From: Candidatus Lokiarchaeum ossiferum
GTDB taxonomy: Archaea; Asgardarchaeota; Lokiarchaeia; Sigyniarchaeales; Promethearchaeaceae
Reading direction: 5' to 3'
Length of the DNA stretch: 32,000 nucleotides
Assembly: GCA_025839675.1 (NCBI GenBank)
Contig: CP104013.1
Location: 2,040,001-2,072,000 of the forward strand
A program made the translations under genes and the position numbers. The notes beneath the pieces were generated by a model. The model did no database searches, had not been told where the DNA came from, and saw nothing but the letters and a program-made list of their open reading frames with translations. This document shows, piece after piece, positions 10,412 through 32,000 of this stretch (position 1 is its first letter; each line of letters starts with the position of its first letter).

Positions 10412-10420
10412 AATATCACT

Positions 10421-11024: not shown

Positions 11025-11039
11025 TATTTTCTCTTTTTA

Positions 11040-12953
11040 TTACTTATTCTCATCAAATAAAAATTCAAAGAACCAACCGCTTTCTTCTGCAGTAACCTTC
11101 ACACTGTAACCACAATTTTTTATGATATGTTCCATGGCTTTATTTTCCCACATTATTTCTCCATTAAAACCAGCCAATTCTTTTTCTTTGGCAATTCTAA
11201 TCAATTGCTGCAGCATATAAGTGGTGAGACCTTTGTTTCTCCATTCATTATGAACAGTAAAAGCAATTTCAGCAAGATTCTTGGTAGAATTCTTTTCATA
11301 ACTGCATAAAGCCACCGCCTTCTCGTGCCCAACTTCCCCAACTACACCAATTAGACCTAATATATTTTCATAATCCATTAAGATATCCATTTGAACATCT
11401 GGACGTTCAAAATATTTCTTTTTCCTAAAAAATCGATAGATACGACTTTCTTCATCCAGTGAATAATAGAGATCTTGTACCAGTCGTTCATCAGTGGGGA
11501 GAATCGGGCGAAAATGGACTTCGAGGATGTCATCAATCATGAAGACAGAGCGATATTTTTCAGGATAAATGATCACGTGCCCTGTTGCATCAGTGGCTAA
11601 CTGTTGGTCAGAGTAACAATAATTAAGTTTCTTCGCTTCATCCAACAACCACTTCCTAAATTTAGGATGAGCAATAGATATTAAAGCAAGAGCCCTTTCC
11701 CGAATATTTTTTCCATATAACTGGGCAATACCATATTCAGTCACAACATAATGAACATCTGCCATTGTTAAGGAAACATGAGATCCAGAAATAAGTGTTG
11801 GAACAATCCGAGATAAACTACCCCCAATAGCTGTAGAAGGAAAACAAATAATGGGCATCCCACGCTTTGAGTATGAAGCACCTCGACTAAAATCAACTAA
11901 ACCCCCAATTCCAGAATAAAATATTGGCCCAATCGAATCCGCATTGATCTGTCCCATCAAATCTACGCTGATTGCTCCATTGATTGTTGTCATCTGATGA
12001 TTCTTTGCAATCAACAGGGGATTATTCGTATAATTGGCGGGTTGAAATTCGATCCCCAAATTGTCATCCACATAATCAAACAGTTTTTTTGTCCCTAAAC
12101 CGAAACAAGCCACAGATCTCCCAGGGGAAACGGTTTTCAATTTATTAGTCACAGCACCTTGCTCAATTAAATCCACGAAACCATCAAAAAAACTGTCGGA
12201 ATGAATCCCCAAATTTTTATGATCTATTAACTCGTTCAATACGGCATGAGGAACATCACCCAACCCCACTTGAATTGTGGAACCATTGCGAATTAACGAG
12301 GCCACATTTTTAGCTATTTTGCAAGTGGTCTCATCTGGTGTTTTATGCTTATATTCTAAAAGTGGTTTTTCATTATAGACAAAATGATCGATCTTGCTCA
12401 TATGAACAAATGAGTTGCCGTGCACTCTGGGAACAAAGGGATTCACCTCTGCAATCACTAATTCGGCTTCTTCCATGATAGGTTTAGCAACATCAACATT
12501 CACACCCAAGGAACAATAATCATTCTTATCTGGGGGTGAAACTTGAATTAAAGCCACATCAATTGATTTTCGACCGGAATGAAATAAAGCAGGGATATCA
12601 GATAATCCCATTGGAGTGTAATCCGCTTGCCCTGAATTTACAGCATCCCGAATAGATTGTTCTCCCAAAAAAAAGGCATTATATCGAAACAAATCTTGAG
12701 GTTTATGTTTTAGTATTTTTTGATTATTGGAATAAATGGATAAAAAGTGATGAATCTCAATATCTTTCAAATATTGATGTTGGCGATACAATTCCGAGGT
12801 CAACTTTTGAGGTTGAGAACATCCAGAATGGATAAATAATTTATTGCCAGGTTTTAATAACTTAATGGCATCTTGAGGAGTAATTTCTTTGTGACCGAAG
12901 TTATTATACCATCGGGCAAGATTTTGCCACACTTCACTTTTCTTATTTTCCAT
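11040..12953 (-). CDS. acetyl-CoA hydrolase/transferase family protein fused to a C-terminal GNAT acetyltransferase domain
   Basis: 637 aa. The first ~450 aa resemble 4-hydroxybutyrate/acetyl-CoA CoA-transferases (GxGGxxDF-type motif in FYSGIGGLVDFSRGA). The last ~150 aa carry the GNAT core (VHNEWRNKGLTTYMLQQLIRIAKE). Confidence 0.8.
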   Translation of the reverse strand: MENKKSEVWQNLARWYNNFGHKEITPQDAIKLLKPGNKLFIHSGCSQPQKLTSELYRQHQYLKDIEIHHFLSIYSNNQKILKHKPQDLFRYNAFFLGEQSIRDAVNSGQADYTPMGLSDIPALFHSGRKSIDVALIQVSPPDKNDYCSLGVNVDVAKPIMEEAELVIAEVNPFVPRVHGNSFVHMSKIDHFVYNEKPLLEYKHKTPDETTCKIAKNVASLIRNGSTIQVGLGDVPHAVLNELIDHKNLGIHSDSFFDGFVDLIEQGAVTNKLKTVSPGRSVACFGLGTKKLFDYVDDNLGIEFQPANYTNNPLLIAKNHQMTTINGAISVDLMGQINADSIGPIFYSGIGGLVDFSRGASYSKRGMPIICFPSTAIGGSLSRIVPTLISGSHVSLTMADVHYVVTEYGIAQLYGKNIRERALALISIAHPKFRKWLLDEAKKLNYCYSDQQLATDATGHVIIYPEKYRSVFMIDDILEVHFRPILPTDERLVQDLYYSLDEESRIYRFFRKKKYFERPDVQMDILMDYENILGLIGVVGEVGHEKAVALCSYEKNSTKNLAEIAFTVHNEWRNKGLTTYMLQQLIRIAKEKELAGFNGEIMWENKAMEHIIKNCGYSVKVTAEESGWFFEFLFDENK

Positions 12954-17370: not shown

Positions 17371-18339
17371 ATGGGTAACGAAAAAAAAAACTATCATATC
17401 CGAGATTTGATCATAGATGACGAATATGGTACAATTTCAAATGAAGCAACTGTTGAAGAAGTTGCCAAAAAAATGAAAGAATTGGACGTTCCAGACTTGG
17501 TAGTCTTGGAAAAAGGTTCAGATAAAGTATTAGGTGTTGTAGCAGATTTTGATATAGTTCAAAATATTGTTGCCGATGGTTTAGATCCAAAGACAACTAA
17601 AGCAACCGCAGCGATGTACACCATAGAACCAGTCACTTTAAACACCAAAGTTGAAGAAGCCTTTTCAAAAATGCAAGAATTGCATGTTAATGTGGTTCCT
17701 GTGATTGAAAAGAAAAAATTAATTGGAGTAGTCACCCTTCAAGATTGTTGGGGATTTATTCCTGATGAAACAGTGGATGAAATAGGATTAATCCCCGTCC
17801 CAGATCCAAAGACGGCGGAATTTTGGTTTGCTGGTTTAGCAGCAATTTTAGCTCTTATCCTTGGAATGGTTTTTCCGCTTGCAGGAATCACCGGATTCTA
17901 TAAGGGAGATTTTCTCGGAAATCCGATATCATACTATCTTTTTGAAGCACATAGTTCAGATTATCGAACAGCCTATATGAACATGAACGGCGCAATGTGG
18001 ATAGTTACTGTCATCTGCAGTTTCTTAGTAATCTTTTCAAGTATTTTCGGAGTTTTTGCCTTATTATATGTGAGCTATTCAGATTCAAAAACGATTAAAA
18101 CCGCACCTGTATTGCGATATATTATTCCTGCATTACCAATTGTGTTCTTGGTATTCGAATGGATTTTTATAAAAATCGCCCTAAATGTGAGTTCAATAGG
18201 GACTAATGTTAAGATAGATGCTTTAGGATTAATTATGACCATTTTTGCGATACTCTTCTATTTAGGTGCAATTTTTCGGGACTATGCATTCCGACAAACT
18301 GGCGGAACCCCTGCATCAACAAATCAGGTGAATAATTAA
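17371..18339 (+). CDS. CBS-pair domain protein with a C-terminal multi-pass membrane domain
   Basis: The N-terminal ~135 aa carry two CBS motifs (ATVEEVAKKMKELDVPDLVVLEKGSDKVLGVVADFDIV and KVEEAFSKMQELHVNVVPVIEKKKLIGVVTLQD). Four to five hydrophobic helices follow. Confidence 0.8.
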   Translation: MGNEKKNYHIRDLIIDDEYGTISNEATVEEVAKKMKELDVPDLVVLEKGSDKVLGVVADFDIVQNIVADGLDPKTTKATAAMYTIEPVTLNTKVEEAFSKMQELHVNVVPVIEKKKLIGVVTLQDCWGFIPDETVDEIGLIPVPDPKTAEFWFAGLAAILALILGMVFPLAGITGFYKGDFLGNPISYYLFEAHSSDYRTAYMNMNGAMWIVTVICSFLVIFSSIFGVFALLYVSYSDSKTIKTAPVLRYIIPALPIVFLVFEWIFIKIALNVSSIGTNVKIDALGLIMTIFAILFYLGAIFRDYAFRQTGGTPASTNQVNN

Positions 18340-18341
18340 AA

Positions 18342-19916
18342 ATGCCCAGAGGAGGAGGAGGTTTTAGCGGGGGCGGTGGAGGATTTCGAGGAGGCGGATT
18401 TCGCTCCAGCGGGGGAAGTTTTAGATCCAGTTCCTTCCGCTCCAGTAGCCCAAGTTTTAGATCCCGTTCCAGTTCACGCCCTTATGGAAGAACTGGTGCT
18501 CGAAGGACAACATCTTCATCATATCATAGAAGTCGATCAAGCCCTTATCGCCATAACACGTATCATCGACCATACTATCATCGACGTCACTACCACCGAC
18601 CCTATTATTACCGAAGCTGGTGGTATCGTCCATACTTCTGGGGTCGGCATTATCGCCCATGGTATTATTCTCCCGTGTATGTAGGCGGGGGTTTAGTGTT
18701 AGCAGTAGTATTAATGATGGTATTTATCCCCTTAATGGGAATTGCTCTCTCTTTTCCATTTTCAAGTAGTAGTTCATCCGGATTAGTAAATTACAGAGCA
18801 ACCGAGCAATTAAATTTTAATGAATATTGGTATGAATATGAATCACTTGAAGCAGGGAATGAAATCAAATTCGACATTCAAGCAACAACACCAATTAGTT
18901 TCGCCATTGCAGATCACCCCTTTGCAGATTTCCCAACAACTACAGAATCAGGGCAAGATACAGGAAGTTTATCATTAGGTGCAGATGAATATGGATACCA
19001 AGGATACTATGTCAGTGCGGGTTCAAATTTAGTTTACAATTATTCCGCTACAGACGGGATTGAATTCAAAGTTATGAATAGCGATGAATTTAATTCTTGG
19101 TTATATTATGGTATTCCAGACACATTTGATGAAAGCATGGCGAGTTCATATAGTGGCAGTAGTGCATTCTTTGGCTCAGAAGATGTTTATCTGGTGTGGT
19201 ATAATGAAGTTGGAGCCATTGTTGATGTCGATTATACGATAGACTATACTATTACAGGAGTCTATGATTTAAGTGGAGCAGAGTTTTCCGAAATAGCAAC
19301 ACAAAATGTTGATGGAACTATCACTGTGCCAGAAGATGGAACATGGTATTTCTTCGTGTTTTTCGATCCTATGTACTCAAATGCTGAATCTACATCAATC
19401 ACATTCGATGTTACATATGATAAACAACTCGATACTCAAACACAATGGGCAAATATTAGACCAACCTTGATTTGGGTAGCAATAATCTCCGGAGCACTAA
19501 TTTTAATTGCGAGATCTGCCCGTAAGAAACAGAAGGCTAAAGGAATAACGGCAAATGGAACCAGCGTTGCTCAAACGGGCAGCACCACATCTAAGGTCGC
19601 CAGTTCAACCCTTAGAACAACCAGTAATTCCAAATCATCGGTTTATGGAAAATCAGAACAAAAACAAACACCTTCTGCATCCGTTAAAACCACGCTTCAA
19701 CCTCAAATTGATCCATCTAAATGTACCCGATGCGGTTGTTCTTTGGAAGCAAAAGATATCTTTTGTCCCGCCTGTGGAAAGAAAAAGGAAGGGAGGAAAG
19801 TGGGAGGAACTACGGTTTCCAAGGAACTTAAATCCCAAGTTTGTTCTTATTGTGGTAAGCAAATTCAAAAAGATGCCCAATTCTGTATTGGTTGTGGATC
19901 AAAGATTCAACGATAA
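18342..19916 (+). CDS. two-pass membrane protein with an N-terminal RGG/RS/Tyr-His-Arg-rich low-complexity tail, an extracytoplasmic domain and a C-terminal double zinc ribbon
   Basis: 524 aa, with the ATG 2 nt after the CBS gene stop and AGGTGA 12 nt upstream. Residues 1-113 read MPRGGGGFSGGGGGFRGGGFRSSGGSFRSSSFRSSS...YHRPYYHRRHYHRPYYYRSWWYRPYFWGRHYRPWYY. TM1 is at about residues 114-140 and TM2 is IRPTLIWVAIISGALILIA. An S/T-rich linker follows, then CTRCGC...CPACG and CSYCG...CIGCG (19722-19895). Confidence 0.8.
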   Translation: MPRGGGGFSGGGGGFRGGGFRSSGGSFRSSSFRSSSPSFRSRSSSRPYGRTGARRTTSSSYHRSRSSPYRHNTYHRPYYHRRHYHRPYYYRSWWYRPYFWGRHYRPWYYSPVYVGGGLVLAVVLMMVFIPLMGIALSFPFSSSSSSGLVNYRATEQLNFNEYWYEYESLEAGNEIKFDIQATTPISFAIADHPFADFPTTTESGQDTGSLSLGADEYGYQGYYVSAGSNLVYNYSATDGIEFKVMNSDEFNSWLYYGIPDTFDESMASSYSGSSAFFGSEDVYLVWYNEVGAIVDVDYTIDYTITGVYDLSGAEFSEIATQNVDGTITVPEDGTWYFFVFFDPMYSNAESTSITFDVTYDKQLDTQTQWANIRPTLIWVAIISGALILIARSARKKQKAKGITANGTSVAQTGSTTSKVASSTLRTTSNSKSSVYGKSEQKQTPSASVKTTLQPQIDPSKCTRCGCSLEAKDIFCPACGKKKEGRKVGGTTVSKELKSQVCSYCGKQIQKDAQFCIGCGSKIQR

Positions 19917-20158
19917 CACTTTTTTTAATTTCGTTTTCTTATTCTTTTTTCTATGTTTCATCGATTCGAAATTTTATTTTTTTTATATCAAATTTAAACA
20001 GTTAAATGAATAATGATAATCAAGAGAATTTTAACCCTTCATTTCCCACCTTTTTGTTCATCAGTTTTAGGTATTCAAAATTTTATTTCGATGAAAAACT
20101 TTTTATCTCTTTCTTTGTCTTGTATCTATTACAGCTTAAATTTTACATAGGTCATTTC

Positions 20159-20662
20159 ATGAAAAAACGGTTTGATTCGTATTGTGGACTTTATTGTGGT
20201 GCTTGTGAGATAATGAAAATTAACTTGACAAACAATTTTATTCAAGCTGCTAAAGATCGCAATGAGGAATTGGAAAATCTTGTATGCGACGGATGCAAGA
20301 GTTCCCAACACTGTGCAGAGTGTTCGATATGCGATATTCGAAAGTGTGCTCAAGATAAAGGTTTGGAATTTTGTAGCGAATGTGCATCATACCCGTGTAA
20401 AATGCTCCTTCGCTTTAAGAGTAATAATAAACCCCATCATTCTGCAATTATTGCGAATTTAGAAGAGATTAAAAATTTTGGTGTAGAAGAATGGTTAATA
20501 AGACAAGAAACACGATGGGCGTGCCCTAAGTGTAATACACCATTTTCTTGGTATGAAAAAACATGTGAAGAATGTGGAGAATCTCTTTATCATTGTAAAA
20601 AAGAACAAAAAGAAATTTTATTGGACGAATTATCAAAACTACCTTTATTTTTTGCCCTATAA
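20159..20662 (+). CDS. Cys-rich DUF3795-like protein with a C-terminal zinc ribbon
   Basis: The first 51 codons of the track ORF (from 20006) are low-complexity junk. The ATG at 20159 gives MKKRFDSYCGLYCGACEIMK...CDGCKS..CAECSICDIRKCAQDKGLEFCSECASYPC, which is the DUF3795 cysteine pattern as I recall it, followed by CPKCN...CEECG. Confidence 0.6.
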   Translation: MKKRFDSYCGLYCGACEIMKINLTNNFIQAAKDRNEELENLVCDGCKSSQHCAECSICDIRKCAQDKGLEFCSECASYPCKMLLRFKSNNKPHHSAIIANLEEIKNFGVEEWLIRQETRWACPKCNTPFSWYEKTCEECGESLYHCKKEQKEILLDELSKLPLFFAL

Positions 20663-20717
20663 CGAAAACAAAACCCTAAAATTTGAACCAAATTAATATT
20701 CCTTACTGGTAATCTCT

Positions 20718-22217
20718 ATGAAATCTAATACACCACGAAATTTAATTATAATTTCCTTATTGTTATTAAGTACTAGTTTATTTTCATCTGTTCCTTCAGC
20801 TCATGCCCAATCATCTACCTTTGAATCCATTGATGCTTTTATTCAAGAACAAATGAAAGATATGTTAATCCCAGGAATTGCTTATGGATTAGTGATGGAT
20901 AACGAAACTGTTTACACCAATGCTTTCGGAAAAGCGGATAATGATGGAGCATCCATGACATCAGAAACACCAATGCATCTTGGAGCAATGGGAAAGACTT
21001 TCATTTCAACTTTAATGATGAAGTTAACAGAAACTAACAATATAACGTTAAATCAGACAGTTCAATCCATCTTTCCTTGGTTCACCACATCTAATTCCCT
21101 TGAATCGTCAAAAATAACACTTGAGCAATGCCTATACCATTTTACAGGGATTCCAACGAGTTTAGATATTTCTATTTTATTAAATAACTCCCTTGAAGAA
21201 ATAGTTCGAAAATTTGATACCATCCAACTTTCTTCCACACCGGGTTCAGAATTCATCTATAGCAACTATAATTATATTATCCTCGGAGCGATCATTGAAA
21301 AAGTTTCCAATATGACCCTTAACGATAGTTTTCACATTTTTATTGCAGATCCACTCGAAATGAACAACGTCTATACTTCGATTGATGAAGCAAAGGCAAA
21401 TGGGTTATCTCATGGCTATCAACCATGGTTTGGATTACAACAAATATCAAACAAAGAGTATTCTAAATCTAATATAGTCACGGAGCAATTTATTGCTTCA
21501 GCGGATGATATGACACATTTCATAGTGGCTCATTTGAATTCAGGAAATTATGAAAATACCACTATCTTGAACAAAACAAATATTCAAATGATTCATAGTA
21601 TCCCTGAGAAATTTCAAGATAAATCCTATTATGCAATGGGATGGGCAAATCATACTTTAGATGAATATGAAGTAATCAGTCATTTAGGTAATTTGGACGA
21701 TACATTTGCGGATATGATGCTTATTCCGAGTGAAGGAATTGGAGCAGTGATTTTAATAAATACGAACAATTTCCTTGGTCAAACCGCATATTATCAAGAA
21801 TTAGTGCCAAGTATTCTTAAGATGTTATTGGATCAGGAACCAACAGTGCGAAATATGACGTACATCTTCCTATATATGATCATTGATCTTCTAATTATAC
21901 TTTCTATTGTTTTTGAAGGCCGTCGTTATATAAAATTTGAAGACCGATTAAAAAACTTCTTAGCGGATTTTAAAGATCCAAAGGAACGACGTTCTCAAGC
22001 AATCGGCAAATCTATCGCAGATTTTATGATTGTCCCATTCATACTTCTCGGAGTTCCCGGAATAGTCTCACTTATGATGGGCATTCCAGGTTTTAATTTA
22101 AGAATGTTGATGAGTTTACAACAAGATCTTGGACTTTGGATCTTTTTCTTTGGCGCTTCAGCACTTATTCAAGCAATTTTACGAGTAGCTTATTTTAAGA
22201 AGAAAAAAATATACTAA
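20718..22217 (+). CDS. secreted beta-lactamase/PBP4*-fold (serine hydrolase family) protein with C-terminal TM helices; the nucleophile Ser is replaced
   Basis: A signal peptide is present (LLLLSTSLFSSVPSAHA). The family motifs YSNYNY (YxN) and SHLGN (HxG) are present. The SxxK position reads LGAMGKTF, i.e. A-M-G-K (Ala codon 20985-20987, Lys 20994-20996). There are three to four C-terminal TM helices. Confidence 0.75.
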   Translation: MKSNTPRNLIIISLLLLSTSLFSSVPSAHAQSSTFESIDAFIQEQMKDMLIPGIAYGLVMDNETVYTNAFGKADNDGASMTSETPMHLGAMGKTFISTLMMKLTETNNITLNQTVQSIFPWFTTSNSLESSKITLEQCLYHFTGIPTSLDISILLNNSLEEIVRKFDTIQLSSTPGSEFIYSNYNYIILGAIIEKVSNMTLNDSFHIFIADPLEMNNVYTSIDEAKANGLSHGYQPWFGLQQISNKEYSKSNIVTEQFIASADDMTHFIVAHLNSGNYENTTILNKTNIQMIHSIPEKFQDKSYYAMGWANHTLDEYEVISHLGNLDDTFADMMLIPSEGIGAVILINTNNFLGQTAYYQELVPSILKMLLDQEPTVRNMTYIFLYMIIDLLIILSIVFEGRRYIKFEDRLKNFLADFKDPKERRSQAIGKSIADFMIVPFILLGVPGIVSLMMGIPGFNLRMLMSLQQDLGLWIFFFGASALIQAILRVAYFKKKKIY

Positions 22218-22397
22218 AAAAGTTCAACAATCTTGAATTTATACCCATTTTTCATTTTTATTCAATTTTAGCATCATAGGAAAATTGCTTTTTTAATTTA
22301 TTGCAAGAAAATATAAAGAAAAACTGCTCTAAAAAACGGAGATCACAGCATAAAGTTAAATATTTGAAAGATATAAAAAGCAAAAAAGTTTGAAGAT

Positions 22398-22481
22398 CTA
22401 TTCTTGAACTTTTGCTAATTGCTTGCGTGCCCATTGAAGCATAGTGGCTTCTAATTGAGCGATATCGTCGTCAGTAATCAT
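22398..22481 (-). CDS. micro-ORF (27 aa) with a strong Shine-Dalgarno sequence, hypothetical
   Basis: Hand translation gives MITDDDIAQLEATMLQWARKQLAKVQE followed by TAG. AAGGAG (22491-22496, minus sense) lies 9 nt upstream of the ATG. The peptide looks like an amphipathic helix. No family recognised. Confidence 0.3.
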   Translation of the reverse strand: MITDDDIAQLEATMLQWARKQLAKVQE

Positions 22482-22665
22482 TGTATCTATCTCCTTATCA
22501 GTTAATTGCGAATGAAATCAGTGTGGCTATATATTCCGACATTATTTCTTAATTCACGTACACTAATGTATCATCCCAAAAAAACCTTTTGACTGCAAAT
22601 TAATGCAAATTTTCACCCTATTTCATGAAAAAGCGGAACAAATGAAACCCATTAAAATGGACGAC

Positions 22666-23946
22666 TCATGAAATTTGATGAGATTTCCACCGAAAATCAT
22701 GGCTAATTTTTGCATAATGGCGATTTAATTGATCCAATTCTTCAAAATTATAAACTTGAATCACAATATACGACAGATCAGGATGAAAAATGGATGCATC
22801 TAAAATAACAATGAATCTATGGCCATCGTCTAATGAAAAGGTGAAATAGTCGCCTTTTTCTCCAAAAATTCGTTTATGATCCATCAATAACTTGAGAATA
22901 TAGGATTTCAGTGAATTAATCTCATCTAAAACCTTGTTATCAGTGGTGAAGAGTGATGCGATATCAAAATCTTTATCTAATAAAAATAATGGTTGAATCA
23001 TGGAAGTATCGGCAAGCATTTGAAATAATTCTGAAAAGAAATTGAAAAACAGGGAGAATTTATCCAGAATCAACTGAGTCCCAATAATTAAATCTTGATT
23101 TCCTTGATATTGGAGACTGGTGAAGAAAATCGGAATATTATTTTTAAATGCGAATTCTTGAAGAGATATTTGATCAAAATCAGGAAAATCAGCAACTAAA
23201 TCAAATTTATGACAAAAAATGACAATCTGAGGGCATATTTTTTCTTCACTTTGATTAATACGGATTAAACGCGATAAAGTATCTAACAATTTCTCGGAAC
23301 TGAGGGTCCAGTCTTCGACAGAAATGAAAAAAATAATGAGATCCGAATATTGCAAAAGATTTTCATCTGGATCCAGCCATCGTTCAATTTCTTGGCCCGA
23401 AGTATCAAACACTGATAGTTGCAAATCAATGAGATCATAATGCGACGTTTCAAATGCTTCCGTGGGGGAAAGGGAAGTATTTAATAAATCTTCGCTGGTA
23501 ATTTTATCAAAAATGAACTGTTTCGTTGAAGTCTTTCCTGAATTCGGATACCCCATGAACACTATCTTTCTGATTTTAGGTTCTATAATATTTTTTGCAA
23601 ATTTGTAGAAACATTGATTTCTTTGATCTTTAGCCATTTGGAGTATAGAATCACCTTGAATTTTGAGTTCCATTTGAAGTTTATTTATCAAAACTGTATC
23701 GGTTTCATCTAATACTGCGACAATAAAATCGTAATTCATGATCCCATCTCTCACTGGAAATCCATAAATTAAAACAATTTGATTTTCATCCTTGATTTCT
23801 AACGTTGGAGATGTACCCAAAGCTTGCAATGTCGCCAAATATTGCGAAATTTTATTCTTATCGATTTGAGAATTGTCCGGATATTGAGCTTCGATTATTG
23901 AACCCAACATATTATCCCAACCAACTAAGAATATCCCTTTTAGCAT
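22666..23946 (-). CDS. multidomain small GTPase: N-terminal longin/roadblock-like domain, Rag/Gtr-like GTPase domain, C-terminal roadblock-like domain
   Basis: 426 aa. G1 is KIVFMGYPNSGKTS (23530-23553), G3 is DTSGQ (23392-23406) and G4 is CHKFD (23200-23211). By eye it matches human RagA segment by segment: KVLLMGKSGSGKTSM, WDCGGQD and FCLVHKMDLV. The flanking ~120-aa regions have alternating beta/alpha-like patterns. Confidence 0.8.
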   Translation of the reverse strand: MLKGIFLVGWDNMLGSIIEAQYPDNSQIDKNKISQYLATLQALGTSPTLEIKDENQIVLIYGFPVRDGIMNYDFIVAVLDETDTVLINKLQMELKIQGDSILQMAKDQRNQCFYKFAKNIIEPKIRKIVFMGYPNSGKTSTKQFIFDKITSEDLLNTSLSPTEAFETSHYDLIDLQLSVFDTSGQEIERWLDPDENLLQYSDLIIFFISVEDWTLSSEKLLDTLSRLIRINQSEEKICPQIVIFCHKFDLVADFPDFDQISLQEFAFKNNIPIFFTSLQYQGNQDLIIGTQLILDKFSLFFNFFSELFQMLADTSMIQPLFLLDKDFDIASLFTTDNKVLDEINSLKSYILKLLMDHKRIFGEKGDYFTFSLDDGHRFIVILDASIFHPDLSYIVIQVYNFEELDQLNRHYAKISHDFRWKSHQIS

Positions 23947-24031
23947 TTTTGATTACCCATTTCGAGATTAATTATATTGTTTATATGAGCCCAGATGTTT
24001 AATAGTTGTGAAAAAAGGAAAAAACTGGAAT

Positions 24032-24733
24032 TTATTCCCCAATTTCAGTAGAATTTTTAAAAAACTTTGAAGAATAATATCCTTGGATCCAAAATGTAAC
24101 AATTTCAGCATAAACTACAATCTTTTGGCCAACAACTTGAATAAACCGTCCCGTTTCAGTATTTGAATCAGGGCCAAAAAATAAAAGATAAAGATATACA
24201 ATCAAAATACACCCCATTGCAATATATACAACGGATAAAATTTTTGGAGTAGATTTGTTCCGTAAAAATGTTATAACATAACATAGAACAACAGGTAAGG
24301 TGGTTGGAAAGGCTAAATAAACAAAAAAGAGATGTAATTCTAAAGTTGTATCCCAAGGAGTAAAACCTATTCCAATGTAGCCAAAAGCGGCAACAAATCC
24401 GATTAAGCTTCCAATAACCATCAGAACGAAATCAAGTTTATTCGTTTTAAATAGAGAAGGAATAGTTGCAAAGTAAGGCAGCATGAATCCTCCACAAAAT
24501 ATGGTAGCGAGTAAAAAGAGCGTTGATGAGAGCATATTTGATTCTCCACTATAACTCGTTGTCATTCCCAAATCGCTAAAAAAATTGTTGAAGAAAGAAT
24601 ATCCCAAGTTTTCTTGATTAAAAGCAGTCCCACCAGTAAATGTAAACATTGCGATTATGGTTAAAATGAAGAAAAGAGAACTACCGATAACTGGTGCGAA
24701 AAGAGCCCATTGTTTCAGTTTATTTTTATCCAT
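24032..24733 (-). CDS. polytopic membrane protein (possibly DUF998-like)
   Basis: 233 aa with about 6 hydrophobic helices. The FFSDLGMT motif after TM1 is reminiscent of DUF998. The family call is weak. Confidence 0.55.
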   Translation of the reverse strand: MDKNKLKQWALFAPVIGSSLFFILTIIAMFTFTGGTAFNQENLGYSFFNNFFSDLGMTTSYSGESNMLSSTLFLLATIFCGGFMLPYFATIPSLFKTNKLDFVLMVIGSLIGFVAAFGYIGIGFTPWDTTLELHLFFVYLAFPTTLPVVLCYVITFLRNKSTPKILSVVYIAMGCILIVYLYLLFFGPDSNTETGRFIQVVGQKIVVYAEIVTFWIQGYYSSKFFKNSTEIGE

Positions 24734-24819
24734 AAAATTTGTTTAGCTGTTTTTTTTTTTAAGCTTGCTGTAATTTTATTATAGAAATATTTATTTTTGT
24801 TTAATTAATTCCAAAAAAA

Positions 24820-25284
24820 TTAACTTGATAGTGCCAATAAATTATACTCTTCCCATTTTTTGTCAAACTGAATTATTTTGAAACCAAGACTAAAGAAAAA
24901 GTTTAGAGCTCTAAAATTTTCAATTTTTACTTCAGTATAAACCGGGAAATTTAATTTTTGCGCTTCTCTCTTAGCAAAACTAATTAATTTCTTTCCAAAG
25001 CCTTGGTTTTGAAAATTGCTTGCAAGTGCAGTCATTTTTATAATTAGTTTATCTAATTCATATTTTAAAATCATAAATCCACAAAGATAATTTTTTTTAA
25101 AAATTCCATAATATTTATGATTCCCGATAGATCTATTTTGAAACCATTCTAAAAGGGATTTTTTTGTATGTTTTCGATTGGTAGAAGATAATACATGAGC
25201 ATTTGGATTCCAAATCTCCACCATAGTAGGAATATTTTCTTCAGTAATGAGGGTAATATTTACATTAACAGAATTTTGACTCAT
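24820..25284 (-). CDS. GNAT family N-acetyltransferase
   Basis: 154 aa. The acetyl-CoA-binding motif Q/RxxGxG/A is present as FQNQGFGKKLISFAKREAQ, with GNAT-like surrounding beta strands. Confidence 0.8.
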   Translation of the reverse strand: MSQNSVNVNITLITEENIPTMVEIWNPNAHVLSSTNRKHTKKSLLEWFQNRSIGNHKYYGIFKKNYLCGFMILKYELDKLIIKMTALASNFQNQGFGKKLISFAKREAQKLNFPVYTEVKIENFRALNFFFSLGFKIIQFDKKWEEYNLLALSS

Positions 25285-25348
25285 TATGACTCTTTATTTT
25301 TATTTGCATAAAAAGATTTAAAAAGTCACAGAAAATGACATTGATATA

Positions 25349-26704
25349 GTGCCTCAACCTTTAAAATCTCAAATCAAAGAAATTCAACTGATTATAGACA
25401 AGGATGATGTAATTGTCAAACATTTTGTTGCGGGGATCTGGAAAGGATCACAAACTTTTACGGGATTTTCTTTCTCCACATCATTGAAATTAGATGCAGT
25501 TTATGCCTATGAACGAGATAAAATTCCAGCAAGAGCAACCTTGCGAGATGATCACCATACCATTGATGTCCAATTTACTACTGCCATTCAACCTAATTCA
25601 AAATATGTGTATGAAATTCAACTTCTTTTAAATCCCAAGGACATCATTCAGAAATTAGGGAGTTTAAACATCATAGAATGGCCCAAAGAAGATTTAACAG
25701 AAATAATCTTTCTTCGCAATGCAGGAGAGATATTCTTTAGCTCTGCATTAGCCAAAATTAAGATTGATCAAAAAAATCACACTCGAAACATTGTTCCGGG
25801 AAAATTTTCAAAGAATTTAACTTCCCATGCTCGGAATGCATCGGCAATAAGAATTGAATGGGGAAAAAGTCCCCAATTTAGATTGCATTTTGATTATATT
25901 ATAAAAAATGTTGACAACCAAACTGCAAGGAATCTCATTCTGGAAACTTATATTCCCCCTTCCACTAAATTTCAAAATTCTAGACTATTATCGCTCAATA
26001 ATTCTAAAATCGATATTGATGAAGATGGAAATTCTCTGTTAACCATAAAAGTTGATGAAATCCCAGCTCATCAAACAAAAGCACTTCAATTTGATTTAAT
26101 TATTACTCCAAAGGGGAATTCCGATATTGTCTTACCTATATTTGGAAAGTGGGAAGAATATCGTAAACTTACACTCCCAGGGTCAACTGGATCGGCCATG
26201 CTTCTAGCTTCGCAATACTGGCCAATTTCAGATTCAATAATCCAAGAATTAGTCAGGATTTTAAAAAAAAATGCCAAGAATGCTTCCGAATTTATCACTC
26301 TCGCCTTTGAATTTGTGAACCAAAAAATATCATATGAAATGAATGGAATTCGAGAGGATGCAGTCAAAACGATGAATGATCGTCGCGGAGACTGTTCAGA
26401 AATGTCCGATTTATTTGTATGCATACTTCGAGCGGGAGGAATTCCAGCCAGAATTGTTCACGGATGGTCTGTTGATTTAGATAACTTATCTCTAGGACCT
26501 CATGCATGGTGTGAATTTTTCTCTCCAGATGCTGGAGGATGGAGGAGTGCAGATCCAACATGGGGTTTTCTTACCGGCACAGGTGTGCAACATATCTGCC
26601 GACAACGCGAAGGGTTAGTGACAGATCAACACACTTATAGTTGGAAATATCAAGGTCAGACAAAAATCGAAGTACAAGAAACGACTACACTATCAATAGA
26701 GTGA
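25349..26704 (+). CDS. cytosolic transglutaminase-like (papain-fold Cys-His-Asp) protein with a ~300-aa beta-rich N-terminal region
   Basis: 451 aa with a GTG start and no in-frame ATG nearby. There is no signal peptide. The transglutaminase core is RRGDCSEMSDLFVCILRAGGIPARIVHGW (Cys codon 26393-26395), GPHAWCEFF (His codon 26501-26503) and RSADPTWG (Asp codon 26552-26554). Confidence 0.8.
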   Translation: MPQPLKSQIKEIQLIIDKDDVIVKHFVAGIWKGSQTFTGFSFSTSLKLDAVYAYERDKIPARATLRDDHHTIDVQFTTAIQPNSKYVYEIQLLLNPKDIIQKLGSLNIIEWPKEDLTEIIFLRNAGEIFFSSALAKIKIDQKNHTRNIVPGKFSKNLTSHARNASAIRIEWGKSPQFRLHFDYIIKNVDNQTARNLILETYIPPSTKFQNSRLLSLNNSKIDIDEDGNSLLTIKVDEIPAHQTKALQFDLIITPKGNSDIVLPIFGKWEEYRKLTLPGSTGSAMLLASQYWPISDSIIQELVRILKKNAKNASEFITLAFEFVNQKISYEMNGIREDAVKTMNDRRGDCSEMSDLFVCILRAGGIPARIVHGWSVDLDNLSLGPHAWCEFFSPDAGGWRSADPTWGFLTGTGVQHICRQREGLVTDQHTYSWKYQGQTKIEVQETTTLSIE

Positions 26705-26708
26705 TAAT

Positions 26709-29700
26709 ATGAAAAAACAAGAAATTGTAAAAAGGATGGAAGTTCCAGTTGCGAATATTTTTGATATGCAATATAAGTGGACAATTTTAGCTGGAGCAGG
26801 TATTTCTATGGATGCTCCATCAAATCTACCTTCTGCTCGTCAAATCACACGTTCTTTATTGGAATTTTGTGCTCCAGAGGAAGAAGTCGAAGAATTAGCA
26901 AATTTAGAGGCTCTTCGCTATGAACTTCTTGTGGAAATGATTCAACAGGTCAGAGATACCGAATTAGTGTTTATGGACTATTTTGATCTGGTCAAGGATC
27001 CAAACTTGGTTCACCTTTTCATTGCTCAAGCAATTCTAACGGGAAATCATGCAATAACTACAAATTTTGACTATCTTATTGAATTTGCCCTTCAATCACT
27101 CCTTTCTCAAGAAAAACACCACAATATTCATCCCATTATAACTAAAGCAGATTTTCTTCAATATAAAAATCCAGAGGAATTGATGGCACAAGGGAGATTT
27201 CCACTGTACAAAATTCATGGCGCAAAAAGTAATATAATAACTCAAGAATCTACCATCGATTCCTTGGTAACCACAATTAGCGATCTGGGAAAAGATCGCG
27301 AGGTAGGAGAAACTTTTGCGATTGAACCTTATAAAAAACCCGCGGTGAACAACATGATGCGAGATAGATCTCTGCTCATTATGGGTTACTCGGGAAGTGA
27401 TGATTTTGATATCGGACCAGTGTTAAAAGAATTGCCTCATTTAAAACAATTGGTTTGGATAGAACATGCACCAGTGGATCGTCCAGAAATCTACCAAATT
27501 CAAAAAATAACAGATCTTTCTACTATTTCTTCTCTTTCTAAACCGGATTCTCTTTTAGCAGAAATTCGATCCGATGTAGATTTTGAAGTCTTTCTAATAA
27601 AAACCAATACAAGAACACTTATACAAGACTCTTTGTGGTCACAATTCTTTCCTTCAATTACTTTACCGAAAATTGCATCCCAACCTACTCAAAGACCTGA
27701 TTTTAAATCATGGGCACAAAATATATATGCAAATACGGGAATCTTAGATAAATATATCTTAGCAAGTAAAATATACTTGGAAGTCAATCAAAATCAATCT
27801 ACTTTGCGAACAGCCCGAAAAGGATTAGATTTAGCATCCAAAATGGAAGATCAATATGAATTTATGAAACAAGGGAATTTTAACAATATTCTTGGTCATG
27901 TGTATAAAGACATTGGTGAACCTGAAAAAGCTTTGGAGGCCTATTCCGCAAATTTGGAGACAGATTTAAAATTAGGTGATGTTGATGGAATAACAGCAGC
28001 TTATAGCGGAATTGGTTACATTTATTATAGTCAAAGTAATTTTCAGACAGCTTTGGAATATTATAACAAAGCATTGGATCTAGCAATAGAGAATGATTTA
28101 CTTGAAAAACAAGGGCATTATCTCAATAGCCTCGGAATGATCTATAAAGATCAAGGAAAATTTGACCAAGCAATGAATTACTTGCAAAAAGCGCTAGCAA
28201 TAGCAGAAAATGTAGGCAATTTGACCAGTAAAGCACGTCTTTATAGCAATATAGGACAGATGCACAAATCCCGAATGGAATATGACAAGGCGATCCAATA
28301 CTATCAAGATGCTTATAAGATAAATTCTGAATTAGGACAAATTAGGAGCATGGCTGTCAGATTAGGCCATATTGGACAAGTATACTATATGCAAGAAAAA
28401 TTTGATCTCGCTAAACAACATTATGAGGATTCATTAAAGATTTATAAAGAACTAGGCGATATTTCGAGTCAAGCACGTACCATGGGAAATTTAGCGTTAA
28501 TTAACGTTCAAAATAAAGAATATGACATTGCCTTGAAAATTTTCAAGGAAACAGTGCAAATTGCAGATAAATTGGGAGAATTACGTGGAAAGGCAATCCG
28601 GTTGAATAATATTGGTACAATTTATCAAGCTCAAGATGAGGATGAACAAGCTTTGAAATATTTCTTTGAAGCCGTAGATATTGATCAATCCACGGGAAAT
28701 CAAGCGAACCTAATCACGGATTTCAATAACATTGGGCTGTCATATGGGAAGCTTAAGAATTATGATCAAGCATTTGATTATTACAATAAAACTATTAACA
28801 TTGCAAAAGAAATTCAACAAGAAGAAATTCGAATGATTGGGTTAAGAAATCTCCGAGATCTTTATGTGCAAAGAGGAGATGAACTCAAATCGGAGAGAAA
28901 TTATCTTCAAGCCATTGAGGATTATCAACAAGCTTTTGAATTACACAACACACTTAAAAATCCCGAAGAAAATGCATATTATTTGAATAAATTAGGTGTT
29001 GCAAATTACTATGCAGATCAAAATGAGACAGCTATGCAATATTTTGAAGAAGCATTTCTTCTCGATGAACAGTTTGATGATCGAAAGGGAAAATCGGATC
29101 GACTTTATTATATGGCCTTAATTTATCAGGAAGCACAAAATCTTGAGAAAGCAGTTGATTTATTCGCTCAATCATTGAAATATGCAGATGAATTAGCTTT
29201 AGTAGACGATCAACTATTATTATTAGAAAAAATTTATAAGATTCATCGGGAACTTGCTTTACCAGAAAAAACAGTTTCATTCTTTGACCGATATTTAACA
29301 CTCCATTCTCATATTTATGCTGAAAACGCGGAAGAACTTCAGGAAAGTGTGATTAAATATCTTGAACTAGCGAAATTAAGTAATTCTCTAAAAATGCATG
29401 AGGAAGCATATGAAATTTTGTTAAGAGGAGCAAAAATTGCCGAACAAACACAGATGTTTTATGAATTATGTGCAATATATTATACTGCAGGATATACACA
29501 ATCTCAAAATCTGAAGAATTATTCAAAGGCAAACAAACTATACAAGCAAGCAGATCAAATTGCAAGTTCACATCACTTTGAGGATCTTCAAAATCAGCTT
29601 TTAAATCAATGGGCCTTAAGTTTAAAGTATTTGGGGCAATTTGATGAAGCAATAAATAAATTATTAATGGCTATTCCTTTAGCGGAAAAAATAGCAGATC

Positions 29701-29876
29701 CAAATGCATTAGGCCATCGATACAATAATTTGGCTGGAATTTATTTTCGGAAGAAAGCTTATCAACAATCTCTCGAATATTATACATTAGCATTAGCACA
29801 ATTTTCTGCTTTAGGCAAAACGAAAAGTGTTGCGACCATTCAAAAAAATATTGAAAATGTCCAAAAACGGATTTAA
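26709..29876 (+). CDS. SIR2_2-type sirtuin-like (putative NAD+-consuming) domain fused to about 17 TPR repeats
   Basis: 1055 aa, with the ATG 4 nt after the transglutaminase gene stop. The N-terminal domain has LAGAGISMDAPSNLP (26793-26807), ITTNFDYLIE (27057-27071), LYKIHGA (His codon 27216-27218) and LLIMGYSGSDDFDIGPVL. These match the GAGxS, TTNYD, HG and GYSxxD blocks of the SIR2_2 family. From about residue 375 to the end there are ~40-aa TPR_12-like units (NxxGxxYxxxGxxxxAxxYYxxAL). Confidence 0.85.
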   Translation: MKKQEIVKRMEVPVANIFDMQYKWTILAGAGISMDAPSNLPSARQITRSLLEFCAPEEEVEELANLEALRYELLVEMIQQVRDTELVFMDYFDLVKDPNLVHLFIAQAILTGNHAITTNFDYLIEFALQSLLSQEKHHNIHPIITKADFLQYKNPEELMAQGRFPLYKIHGAKSNIITQESTIDSLVTTISDLGKDREVGETFAIEPYKKPAVNNMMRDRSLLIMGYSGSDDFDIGPVLKELPHLKQLVWIEHAPVDRPEIYQIQKITDLSTISSLSKPDSLLAEIRSDVDFEVFLIKTNTRTLIQDSLWSQFFPSITLPKIASQPTQRPDFKSWAQNIYANTGILDKYILASKIYLEVNQNQSTLRTARKGLDLASKMEDQYEFMKQGNFNNILGHVYKDIGEPEKALEAYSANLETDLKLGDVDGITAAYSGIGYIYYSQSNFQTALEYYNKALDLAIENDLLEKQGHYLNSLGMIYKDQGKFDQAMNYLQKALAIAENVGNLTSKARLYSNIGQMHKSRMEYDKAIQYYQDAYKINSELGQIRSMAVRLGHIGQVYYMQEKFDLAKQHYEDSLKIYKELGDISSQARTMGNLALINVQNKEYDIALKIFKETVQIADKLGELRGKAIRLNNIGTIYQAQDEDEQALKYFFEAVDIDQSTGNQANLITDFNNIGLSYGKLKNYDQAFDYYNKTINIAKEIQQEEIRMIGLRNLRDLYVQRGDELKSERNYLQAIEDYQQAFELHNTLKNPEENAYYLNKLGVANYYADQNETAMQYFEEAFLLDEQFDDRKGKSDRLYYMALIYQEAQNLEKAVDLFAQSLKYADELALVDDQLLLLEKIYKIHRELALPEKTVSFFDRYLTLHSHIYAENAEELQESVIKYLELAKLSNSLKMHEEAYEILLRGAKIAEQTQMFYELCAIYYTAGYTQSQNLKNYSKANKLYKQADQIASSHHFEDLQNQLLNQWALSLKYLGQFDEAINKLLMAIPLAEKIADPNALGHRYNNLAGIYFRKKAYQQSLEYYTLALAQFSALGKTKSVATIQKNIENVQKRI

Positions 29877-29878
29877 TT

Positions 29879-29903
29879 AAACAGGAATACATTTCTGTTT
29901 TTT
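29879..29903 (+). terminator. hairpin AAACAG...CTGTTT followed by a T-run, after the SIR2-TPR gene
   Basis: AAACAG (29879-29884) pairs with CTGTTT (29895-29900). The stem extends with G-U/A-U pairs and runs into TTTTTT (29898-29903). It starts 3 nt after the stop codon. Confidence 0.35.
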
Positions 29904-29982
29904 CTTATGGGGAAAAGTATCAGCGAAAGATTAAATATATCATAACAATTTGGCGAATCAGACCAAAGGTCCGAGACATTGG

Positions 29983-30010
29983 GCACCATTGGTGCGAAAT
30001 GCTTTATATA
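29983..30010 (+). promoter_or_regulatory. 13-bp palindrome GCACCA-T-TGGTGC (29983-29995) followed by the TATA box TTTATATA (30003-30010)
   Basis: Read directly. The TATA box lies 47 nt upstream of ATG 30057. GTGA lies 8 nt upstream of the ATG. Confidence 0.4.
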
Positions 30011-30056
30011 TCCTTTTGGACTTAACTATCATAGCACTCAACCAGTGTGAAAAACC

Positions 30057-30323
30057 ATGAAACGCTCTCAAAAATTAATGTTATATAGTATTGTCGGAAT
30101 GTTAGCAGTTGGCATCTTTATTGCTGCTGCTAATGCCTCAGCGGAAGAATTAACCTCAGATTTGACTAATGAAACATGTGATGGAACTGGAACACAACAA
30201 CAAAAACGCCAAGGAAATGGAACTGGAGATCATCCTCAAGATGGGACAGGAAACGGTTATAAACACCAATATAATGCAACCTTAGATGAAAATGGTGTCT
30301 GCATCTATGCAACAGAAGCATAA
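30057..30323 (+). CDS. small secreted or membrane-anchored protein with three (D/N)GTG repeats and two Cys
   Basis: 88 aa. The N-terminal signal/anchor is MKRSQKLMLYSIVGMLAVGIFIAAANASA. The mature part is ...ETCDGTGTQQQKRQGNGTGDHPQDGTGNGYKHQYNATLDENGVCIYATEA. It has its own promoter (previous feature). No family recognised. Confidence 0.55.
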   Translation: MKRSQKLMLYSIVGMLAVGIFIAAANASAEELTSDLTNETCDGTGTQQQKRQGNGTGDHPQDGTGNGYKHQYNATLDENGVCIYATEA

Positions 30324-30429
30324 TTGACCTTTTTTTCTTTGTATTTTTCATTAATATTCTTGTAAATCAGCTTGGATTAAAAGTTGGAAAAAATGAAAAT
30401 GAAAAAAAATTTGTACTTCACGCTCTCAT

Positions 30430-31821
30430 TTACAAGAATATTGGAGCAATTAAAGCCCCAACAGAAAATATAAAAGTGAGCCAGAGCCATGCGTTAATTT
30501 CTTTTATCTTCCCTAAAACAATTTTAATTAACACAAAAGAAATAACTCCAAAAACAATTCCATTTGTAATACTATAAGTAAATGGAATCATCACCATAGA
30601 TAGGAACGCAGGAATAGCATCTTCCAAATTAGTCCAATCAATATTTGCAAGAGGTTTAAACATCAAAACACCTAAAAGAACTAAGACAGGAGCGGTTGCA
30701 TATAATGGAACGGCAGCTAATAAGGGACTTAAAAACATAAATGGAAGGAAGCATAATCCAGTAACAACTGCAGTTAAACCAGTTCTACCACCTTCTTCCA
30801 CACCAGCGGCACTTTCAATATATGTTGTTGCATCAGAAGTTCCAAAAAAGCCAGATACAAAAGTAGTTAAACTATCAGCAACAAGAGTTCTCTTGAAATT
30901 CTTTGGATCACCATTTTCATCGAGTAATCCTCCCACTTCAGAGACACCAAGAAAAGTTGAAACACTGTCAAAAAGATCAGTAAAGGCTAAAGTAAAAATT
31001 GGAATAATCAAAGCAGGTTTTAAAATAACCCCAAGATCAAATTTGAAGAAAGTTCCTGTATCGGGTAAGGCAGCAATTTCGGTTATCGCAATTGATTGAA
31101 AATTTTCATCAATAACGTTAGTACCCCATCCACCTATGGAAAAAATTACTCCTAAGATCGCTGTGGTAACAATACCAATTAAAAATGCACCATTGACCTT
31201 CTTAAGCATCAATACAGCCGTAAAAATTAACCCAAATAGAAATAATGCAAAAGTTAAACCAAAATTATTCATACCTACTAATGTGGCGTCATTATTGATT
31301 ACCACACCTGCATCTTGTAATCCAATGAACACTAAAAATAATCCAATTCCGGCCGCAAGACCAAATCTAAGGCTTTTTGGAATTGCTTTTAACACCCCAC
31401 TACTAATTGGAGTTAAGGACATGATAGTTAATAATGCACCAGCAATGATTATTGCCCCCATCATTTCTTCCCAAGTTATTGTTCCACCCCCAACTAATGC
31501 AAAAGAAATATAAGCATTTAAACCCATACCAGGGGCCACAGCATAAGGATTATTTGACATTAATCCCATTACGATGGTCATTACCGCAGAGATTAAAACT
31601 GTTGAGAATAAAATTGCATTGAAATCTTGGTTCGCCCCGTATTCATTAGAAAGAATTCCTGGATTGACCACGATTATATATGCCATTGTCATAAAACTGG
31701 TAATTCCTGCGAGAACCTCAGTTTTGACAGTAGTTTTATTCTCTGAAAGTTTGAATGTTTTTTCGAGGAATTCTCCAAATCCACCTGTAGAATTCTCTTT
31801 CGTTTCTGTTTCAGCAGACAT
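30430..31821 (-). CDS. NCS2-family nucleobase permease (AzgA/PbuG-like adenine/guanine/hypoxanthine transporter)
   Basis: The sequence FKLSENKTTVKTEVLAGITSFMTMAYIIVVNPGIL is the typical AzgA-type N-terminus, followed by about 12 TM helices. I prefer Met21 (ATG at 31819-31821) over the track start at 31881. Confidence 0.85.
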   Translation of the reverse strand: MSAETETKENSTGGFGEFLEKTFKLSENKTTVKTEVLAGITSFMTMAYIIVVNPGILSNEYGANQDFNAILFSTVLISAVMTIVMGLMSNNPYAVAPGMGLNAYISFALVGGGTITWEEMMGAIIIAGALLTIMSLTPISSGVLKAIPKSLRFGLAAGIGLFLVFIGLQDAGVVINNDATLVGMNNFGLTFALFLFGLIFTAVLMLKKVNGAFLIGIVTTAILGVIFSIGGWGTNVIDENFQSIAITEIAALPDTGTFFKFDLGVILKPALIIPIFTLAFTDLFDSVSTFLGVSEVGGLLDENGDPKNFKRTLVADSLTTFVSGFFGTSDATTYIESAAGVEEGGRTGLTAVVTGLCFLPFMFLSPLLAAVPLYATAPVLVLLGVLMFKPLANIDWTNLEDAIPAFLSMVMIPFTYSITNGIVFGVISFVLIKIVLGKIKEINAWLWLTFIFSVGALIAPIFL

Positions 31822-32000
31822 ATTTTTTACCTTGTATTTTTTTAATAAAACAAATTTTGTCCAACCTTTTCTGTAACACAACTACAAAATCTGTTTCGTT
31901 CTTCTCAAAAGCTTCTATTTGAAGTTTATCAAAGAATTGATTCTTACTTAGCTTTGAAATATAAAAGGAGTAAGTACTAGTAGGTTAATATGTCTCGCAA

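Follow-up and report, generated by a model that had tools for sequence, protein, structure and literature searches.

The two genes described here lie side by side on the chromosome of Candidatus Lokiarchaeum ossiferum, an Asgard archaeon. They fall within a stretch of 32,000 nucleotides (contig CP104013.1, positions 2,040,001 to 2,072,000 of the forward strand), which we call the window and in which positions are counted from the first letter. The upstream gene (gene 1) encodes a transglutaminase-like protein. The downstream gene (gene 2) encodes a large protein that combines an N-terminal SIR2 domain with a long array of tetratricopeptide repeats (TPRs). An interpretation made from the letters of the window alone, hereafter the sequence-only reading, had taken the two for a self-contained, two-gene cassette that targets NAD+ in conflict or signalling. 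In the related loci that we compared, each of the two genes occurs without the other.

The layout of the locus was described correctly in most respects. The genes are co-directional and 4 nt apart, both open reading frames (ORFs) are present, and the junction has the context ...GAG TGA TAAT ATG AAA... (Table 1). Gene 1 matches NEF87_001699 of L. ossiferum (6.03-Mb chromosome) at 100% identity, and both genes are adjacent in two L. ossiferum genomes, where their accession numbers are consecutive. To the left of gene 1 lies a divergently oriented gene for a GNAT acetyltransferase, and the AT-rich spacer between the two is presumed to be a promoter region. The same divergent layout is also present in a relative, the metagenomic contig L005. 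To the right of gene 2, the sequence-only reading saw a hairpin and a T-run. The run of six Ts is genuine and the hairpin is weak.

The TTTTTT run is informative with regard to the history of the locus. It is kept in two relatives that have no gene 2, L005 and L107, and because it stands directly 3′ of the transglutaminase gene there, it is probably the archaeal terminator belonging to that gene. On this sequence comparison, the T-run appears to predate gene 2 at the locus, or at least to be common to relatives without gene 2. Gene 2 is located after the gene 1 stop codon and before the T-run terminator, and it is therefore probably transcribed from the gene 1 promoter. That said, a short distance and probable co-transcription, seen in a single species, do not amount to evidence of a functional pair.

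Table 1. Features of the locus and of related loci with nadB. Positions refer to the window unless a locus is named.
Feature	Position	Strand	Description and basis
Gene 1	25349..26704	+	GTG start, 451 aa, NEF87_001699, transglutaminase-like (papain-fold); ORF call
Transglut_core domain of gene 1, residues 303-403	26255..26557	+	Pfam, 64.9 bits, cutoff 23
Catalytic triad of gene 1	C349 26393-26395; H385 26501-26503; D402 26552-26554	+	Alignment of gene 1
Gene 1/gene 2 junction	26702..26711	+	TGA-TAAT-ATG, 4-nt spacer; read from sequence
Gene 2	26709..29876	+	1055 aa, UYP45415.1, SIR2 (SIRim-type)-TPR protein; ORF call and Pfam
SIR2 domain of gene 2, residues ~1-315	26709..27653	+	With extra C-terminal strand/helix subdomain; AlphaFold2, Foldseek, profile
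Catalytic residues of gene 2	N119 27063-27065; H170 27216-27218	+	Alignment
TPR alpha-solenoid of gene 2, residues ~332-1055	27702..29873	+	~720 aa; Pfam, AlphaFold2
Segment replaced by 28 bp in L005	26686..29845	.	3160 bp, nearly exactly gene 2; blastn
GNAT acetyltransferase gene	24820..25284	-	Pfam
Divergent AT-rich spacer between gene 1 and GNAT acetyltransferase gene	25285..25348	.	64 bp; sequence
Weak hairpin and T6 run, 3′ of gene 2	29879..29903	+	Fold -7.3 kcal/mol, z = -1.5
SIR2-TPR gene and nadB in five loci	L030:7962-12052; L031:7789-11880; L033:334-4425; L036:7298-11399; L038:7980-12151		

The comparison that separates the two genes most directly is with the closest relative, L005, a contig of 74.6 kb whose gene 1 shares 88% amino acid identity with that of the window. 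It has no gene 2. The flanks are as in the window, with genes for a beta-lactamase, a RagA-like GTPase, a membrane protein and the GNAT acetyltransferase on one side, and the small ORF and a xanthine/uracil permease on the other. The blastn matches are continuous on both sides of the gap, window positions 18002-26685 corresponding to 613-9337 of L005 and positions 29846-31991 to 9366-11595. The segment in between, which is replaced by a few nucleotides in L005, is listed in Table 1. The second relative, L107, has a gene 1 that is 77% identical, and here too the transglutaminase gene is followed directly by the small ORF and the permease, without gene 2. More widely, a SIR2 or TPR gene was found within 8 kb of the gene 1 orthologue in none of about 17 loci, which include P. 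syntrophicum MK-D1, Harpocratesius, several Promethearchaeum metagenome-assembled genomes and distant Heimdall-like contigs. The surroundings of these orthologues are conserved and metabolic, with genes for acetyl-CoA hydrolase, a class-V aminotransferase, a 2-hydroxyacid dehydrogenase and ADP-forming acetyl-CoA synthetase, and parts of this neighbourhood also lie within the window.

The result is the same when the search starts from gene 2. Homologues of gene 1 are absent from all 86 SIR2-TPR loci that were searched with tblastn and a hidden Markov model (HMM) of the gene 1 family (734 kb), and overall no transglutaminase occurs in 87 such loci (~0.75 Mb). The relatives of gene 2 stand alone in unrelated contexts, each with an upstream intergenic spacer of its own. 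Among the nearest full-length relatives, P0159 (45% identity) has an MFS transporter and a cluster for methylmalonyl-CoA mutase as its neighbours, and those in L021, L022, L027 and L028 (43% identical to gene 2 overall) have their own conserved locus, by an ATC_hydrolase gene and a gene of 120 aa. Clustering of the neighbours across the 86 loci gave no recurrent partner gene beyond TPR or SIR2-TPR paralogues (8 loci) and small syntenic groups.

The sequence-only reading had itself named a lack of co-conservation in other genomes as grounds for giving up the cassette. Because the pair is not co-conserved in either direction, the two-gene cassette is refuted on those grounds; the proposed NAD+-targeting system is absent as a conserved unit and is thus not worth pursuing as such. 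A further check proposed there was whether the pair sits in a variable or defence island. The window is housekeeping in character, gene 2 alone is variable, and no integrase or transposase was found in it. Full-text literature searches agree with its statement that no described system is known to pair a transglutaminase-like enzyme with a SIR2-TPR protein: they turned up neither an account of this pairing nor any hit for 'SIR2-TPR'.

With regard to the origin of gene 2 at this locus, the more parsimonious reading is that the L. ossiferum lineage gained it, because two successive outgroups, L005 and L107, are without the gene. We considered a deletion scar in L005, where the 28-bp filler 'ATGAAAAAG...TTTTAATTAG' resembles the start and the end of gene 2. 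We do not rely on this candidate because the more distant L107 is also without gene 2 and has similar AT-rich sequence before the T-run. Gene 2 is flanked by no target-site duplications and no direct or inverted repeats. Nor does it show a compositional anomaly, as its GC and GC3 match those of the host.

Gene 1 is a core, vertically inherited gene of Lokiarchaeia, and encodes a cytosolic enzyme with a transglutaminase fold and a Cys-His-Asp triad. It is probably single-copy. The orthologue group is confined to Lokiarchaeia-like Asgard archaea, and the 37 homologues are all Asgard-type proteins of about 450 aa. The complete triad claimed for this protein is well supported. The Transglut_core domain (PF01841) scores above its threshold, the three residues are located in GDCSE (347, with C349), PHAWCE (384, with H385) and ADPTW (401, with D402), and each of them is invariant among 23 aligned orthologues. 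A profile alignment puts them on the corresponding Cys, His and Asp residues in TgpA (6g49) and in PNGase (1x3w). The claim of a cytosolic location is consistent with the N-terminus, which is non-hydrophobic.

The best Foldseek matches of the AlphaFold2 model of gene 1 (pLDDT 85) are 3isr and 3kd4, both putative bacterial cysteine proteases, and TgpA (6g4h). Gene 1 thus resembles bacterial transglutaminase-like cysteine proteases, TgpA and eukaryotic PNGase in its Transglut_core fold and aligned triad. It differs in being cytosolic and in having an N-terminal region of its own of about 260 aa. No meaningful Pfam match was found in the N-terminal 300 aa, even at E<=10, and residues 1-260 (window 25349-26130) form two beta-sandwich domains in the model. 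The activity could be that of a protease, a transamidase or an amidase, and nothing in this analysis links gene 1 to NAD+ metabolism. In Foldseek searches the beta-sandwiches match Ost1/ribophorin I of the eukaryotic oligosaccharyltransferase (6s7o_E at 6e-9, 6ezn_A at 1e-7, 7oci_A and 6c26_1). M1 aminopeptidases are matched as well, in their N-terminal domains. TM-scores for these matches are low (~0.25). From these matches of the model, and from the alignment of the core with PNGase, a glycoprotein-related role for gene 1 is conceivable.

The domains of gene 2 are equally clear. Pfam SIR2_2 (PF13289) matches residues 114-239 with 41.4 bits against a cutoff of 24.5, and from about residue 360 to the C-terminus there are matches to TPR_12 (8 stretches), TPR_1, TPR_2, TPR_10, TPR_MalT and SNAP. 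The domain assignments of the sequence-only reading are therefore confirmed by Pfam for both proteins, with SIR2_2, Transglut_core and TPR all above their cutoffs or matched. The four motifs that it had called intact are all in place, GAGIS at residues 29-33, TTNFD at 117 (with N119), IHG at 169 (with H170) and GYSGSD at 226-231. N119, H170 and the GYSG.D block are invariant in an alignment of 37 SIR2-region sequences. In a profile alignment, N119 and H170 align with the catalytic N133 and H171 of DSR2, and GAGIS with GAGVS, so that in both genes the proposed active-site residues occupy catalytic positions. The N-terminus of gene 2, like that of gene 1, is non-hydrophobic. The absence of an NTPase module was also called correctly: a motif search found no Walker A motif in either protein, and Pfam gave no NACHT, NB-ARC or AAA match in gene 2.

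One structural claim did not survive. A linker of about 120 aa had been placed after the SIR2 domain, but in the AlphaFold2 model of residues 1-400 (pLDDT 93) residues 240-315 are folded as part of the SIR2 domain, to which they add strands (247-253, 260-264 and 293-299) and helices. This extension of the fold includes W250, which is invariant in the alignment of the SIR2-TPR family. The TPR-like helical hairpins of the model begin at about residue 332.

As judged from the model and from profiles, the SIR2 domain of gene 2 appears to be of the immune SIRim type and not a classical deacetylase sirtuin. The matches of the family profile in the PDB are to SIR2-APAZ (1e-8) and DSR2 (2e-7), as well as KomC, ThsA and FAM118B; classical sirtuins match weakly (E >= 5e-4). 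The family profile is required for this result, as a phmmer search of the PDB with a single SIR2-region sequence found nothing relevant. When the model is compared with the PDB by Foldseek, immune SIR2 NADases take all of the first ten places: ThsA and KomC rank first and second, and DSR2 and Avs5 are also among them. None of this can be read from the public names of gene 2, 'Photosystem I assembly protein Ycf3' and 'tetratricopeptide repeat protein', which are based on the TPRs and leave out the SIR2 domain. The Ycf3 label is a mis-transfer from TPR similarity because the match to the NCBIfam Ycf3 model reaches 64 bits against a cutoff of 143. With PADLOC, gene 2 matched generic TPR models and no known system, and the models for DSR1, DSR2, ThsA and SIR2-HerA were without a match. 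This agrees with the expectation that no known defence system would be recognised for the pair.

Gene 2 belongs to a family that is large, uncharacterised, not recognised by PADLOC, and Asgard in every named match. In an exhaustive profile search the number of cluster representatives was 7,782 at a cutoff of E<=1e-3, falling to 1,111 at E<=1e-30. The best 136 new representatives are 376-3154 aa long (median 785), and both catalytic motifs are present in 134 of them. Most of the complete SIR2-TPR ORFs in the retrieved loci have 600-1116 aa. We put the family lengths at about 600 to 3154 aa from these two sources, because a set of homologues of the N-terminal 356 aa was incomplete, lacking the L. 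ossiferum protein itself and holding proteins only up to ~620 aa. The four SIR2 motifs occur in nearly all of 109 homologues. Among the matches listed, the named homologues all come from Asgard archaea (Promethearchaeota, Lokiarchaeota, Hermod-, Hel- and Sigynarchaeota), and at least one genome has two copies (P0029 and P0039). A search of viral contigs gave one distant match to the family, at 22% identity. A survey of SIRim proteins that covered Asgard genomes noted eukaryotic SIRim domains fused to NACHT and TPR-like repeats, and did not describe the SIR2-TPR family (10.1101/2024.09.18.613514).

Some members of the family carry extra N-terminal domains, which include LRR, DUF4062, E2 (UQ_con) and TBP (P0184, P0242, P0187, P0189 and P0262). 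By analogy, the fusions to LRR and DUF4062 resemble conflict or signalling proteins, and those to TBP and E2 may be real or may be artefacts of gene calling. Two of the homologues closest to gene 2 are each split into two ORFs, of 481 and 327 aa at L021:5704-8116 and of 418 and 575 aa at L022:4002-7159, whereas the near-identical L027 and L028 have a single ORF of 1052 aa instead. A frameshift, a pseudogene or an error of low-coverage assembly could account for the split.

A further subgroup stands next to a gene of NAD+ metabolism. In five loci (Table 1), an 803-aa SIR2-TPR paralogue is found directly upstream of nadB, on the same strand and with a gap of ~110-200 bp. The nadB gene, for L-aspartate oxidase, was called with NF006567 at 694 bits, and the NadB proteins of the five loci are 71-88% identical. 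Here a predicted NAD+-consuming enzyme adjoins the first enzyme of de novo NAD+ synthesis. The adjacency may be coincidental synteny or a functional link.

Several known systems can be compared with gene 2, and DSR2 of Bacillus subtilis (PDB 8k98, 8wyb and others) is the most similar in architecture. Like gene 2 it is a single polypeptide of ~1000 aa with an N-terminal SIR2 domain and a C-terminal alpha-solenoid, which in DSR2 are a NADase and its sensor; it has no NTPase, it needs no partner gene, and by both profile and fold it ranks among the best matches. In DSR2, the SIR2 domain is followed by a middle domain and an alpha-solenoid C-terminal domain, and the solenoid binds a phage tail-tube protein, which switches on NAD+ hydrolysis (PMC11850899, PMC10981675). 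However, the sequence similarity is limited to the SIR2 core (E = 2e-7 with the family profile), and the DSR models of PADLOC are unmatched. The solenoid of DSR2 is HEAT-like, whereas that of gene 2 is made of canonical TPRs. Furthermore, DSR2 is bacterial and has the phage tail-tube protein as its activator, whereas gene 2 is archaeal. Gene 2 has the single-gene architecture of the DSR type and lies outside the DSR family HMMs.

Other systems share less with gene 2. Avs5, or SIR2-STAND (PDB 9nc9, 9jap), joins a SIR2 effector to a C-terminal repeat sensor and is in the Foldseek top ten, but it has a central STAND NTPase, whereas gene 2 is without Walker A, NACHT or NB-ARC. ThsA (Thoeris), KomC (Kongming), SIR2-APAZ (SPARSA), SIR2-HerA and human FAM118A/B belong to the same SIR2_2/SIRim class of NAD+-cleaving domains as that of gene 2. 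All of these need a partner or a second-messenger module (SLOG or Macro plus ThsB, KomA/B, pAgo or HerA), none of which occurs in gene 2 or in the genes around it. No partner gene or domain of Thoeris, SIR2-HerA or SPARSA was found in gene 2, in the window, or as a recurrent neighbour in the 86 loci.

We consider it reasonably probable that the two genes of the locus are unrelated and are neighbours in the L. ossiferum lineage alone, gene 1 being a core gene and gene 2 an autonomous one, the latter encoding a DSR2-like protein that consumes NAD+ and is gated by its TPRs. A DSR2-like mechanism is favoured because an immune-type SIR2 domain joined to a long alpha-solenoid, with neither an NTPase nor a partner gene, comes closest to DSR2. 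In this mechanism, the SIR2 domain of gene 2 would bind NAD+ via the GAGIS, TTNFD and GYSGSD loops and would cleave it through Asn119 and His170. The TPR solenoid would bind a protein ligand and gate the activity of the SIR2 domain. The ligand might relieve an inhibition or, as seems probable, drive oligomerisation of the SIR2 domains. A foreign or stress-related protein would thereby bring about NAD+ depletion or signalling derived from ADP-ribose. We infer the NADase activity of gene 2, the role of its TPR array as a sensor and its immune or stress role from sequence comparison.

Several observations weigh against this proposal. Gene 2 is 96.5% identical between the two L. ossiferum genomes, equal to gene 1, and strains B35 and B36 have almost nothing in common in their recognised defence systems (bioRxiv 10.64898/2026.02.13.705702). 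Likewise, the SIR2-TPR proteins of L027 and L028 are 91% identical, and their neighbours 73-94%. The 803-aa subgroup keeps its place directly upstream of nadB in all five loci. Few of the 148 scanned neighbours match PADLOC models, and the families are scattered (mad2 5, four families 2 each, others 1), a tally that counts matches per family, not per neighbour, with no background rate alongside. The housekeeping character of the window, with neither integrase nor transposase, points in the same direction, as does the failure of the PADLOC models named above to match gene 2. In addition, the 4-nt spacing could in principle reflect a functional coupling that is specific to this lineage, and the NADase activity of gene 2 is predicted by homology.

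Such slow, vertical evolution of SIR2-TPR proteins is no less compatible with a vertically maintained role in the cell than with a mobile defence gene, and we therefore retain the alternative that gene 2 has a housekeeping or regulatory role, although we think this rather unlikely. In this case it would be an NAD+-dependent protein-modifying enzyme (an ADP-ribosyltransferase or a deacylase), or a sensor of NAD+ or ADP-ribose with a TPR scaffold. The inheritance is vertical at stable loci and the rate is like that of the neighbours, the TPR part included; gene 2 is common to two strains whose recognised defence systems differ, and PADLOC matches are few in the neighbourhoods of the family. One subgroup is tied to nadB by position, and the E2 (UQ_con) or TBP fusions of some members suggest cellular regulation. 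However, the best matches by structure and by profile are without exception immune NADases and not deacetylase sirtuins, the family is hugely expanded, with TPR arrays of variable length and fusions to LRR and DUF4062, and the presence of gene 2 varies between close relatives at the locus.

A functional bicistronic, NAD+-targeting cassette, whose transglutaminase-like member would activate, modify or guard the SIR2-TPR protein or be acted on by it in one of these ways, is very improbable. Co-transcription is likely, given the 4-nt spacer and the one downstream T-run, the catalytic residues are intact in both proteins, and the pair is adjacent in both L. ossiferum genomes. Transglutaminase-like peptidases and SIR2 domains are, furthermore, both effector domains of prokaryotic conflict systems, but in the catalogue of Kaur et al. 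they are alternative effectors and not partners (PMC8195603). Co-conservation is absent both ways, gene 1 being a core orthologue whose metabolic surroundings are conserved and do not include gene 2, and the relatives of gene 2 being solitary, with spacers of their own in unrelated contexts. We give the least credence of all to a pseudoenzyme, with SIR2 as a catalytically dead binding module in a TPR scaffold protein, since the solely TPR-based database names that would suit it include a 'Ycf3' label transferred from TPR repeats, and GAGIS, TTNFD, K-I/L-HG and GYSGSD are kept in almost all members, in >1,000 clusters, with purifying selection on the exact NAD+-binding and catalytic residues.

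Beyond this locus, it is possible, and we put it forward tentatively, that the SIR2-TPR family is a stand-alone, NTPase-free pattern-recognition NADase. It would be a DSR2-like immune receptor that was vertically kept and expanded in Asgard archaea, and that is possibly related to the eukaryotic SIRim proteins with TPR-like repeats. The family offers a test of whether Asgard archaea use DSR2-like immunity by NAD+ depletion or have adapted the chemistry for cellular regulation. Among archaea, the Asgard group is the one most closely related to eukaryotes, and whichever answer is found will have a bearing on how the SIRim and NLR-like proteins of eukaryotes originated in prokaryotes. The family is tractable because L. 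ossiferum is cultured and a cultivable virus is now at hand (bioRxiv 10.64898/2026.02.13.705702).

Finally, some other features of the window may be of use to researchers working on this genome. An ORF of 1011 aa on the reverse strand (window 4435-7470) has no Pfam match at E<=1e-5. A protein of 426 aa, also encoded on the reverse strand (window 22666-23946), has a small GTPase domain that is Gtr1/RagA- and Arf-like and of the eukaryotic-signature type, and the gene for this Gtr1/RagA-like GTPase has the same position in the relative with the 88% identical gene 1. To the right of gene 2, an intergenic stretch (window 29958-30056) precedes a small ORF for a secreted protein of 88 aa (30057..30323). 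This stretch, almost invariant in the relatives at 88% and 77% identity, exceeds the flanking coding DNA in conservation. Within it are the palindromes GACCAAAGGTCC and GGGCACCATTGGTGC and a BRE/TATA-like element, GCTTTATATA, and also AACCAGTGTGAAAAACCATG. A search of Rfam with this stretch gave no match; it is probably a regulated promoter/operator or a small structured RNA.

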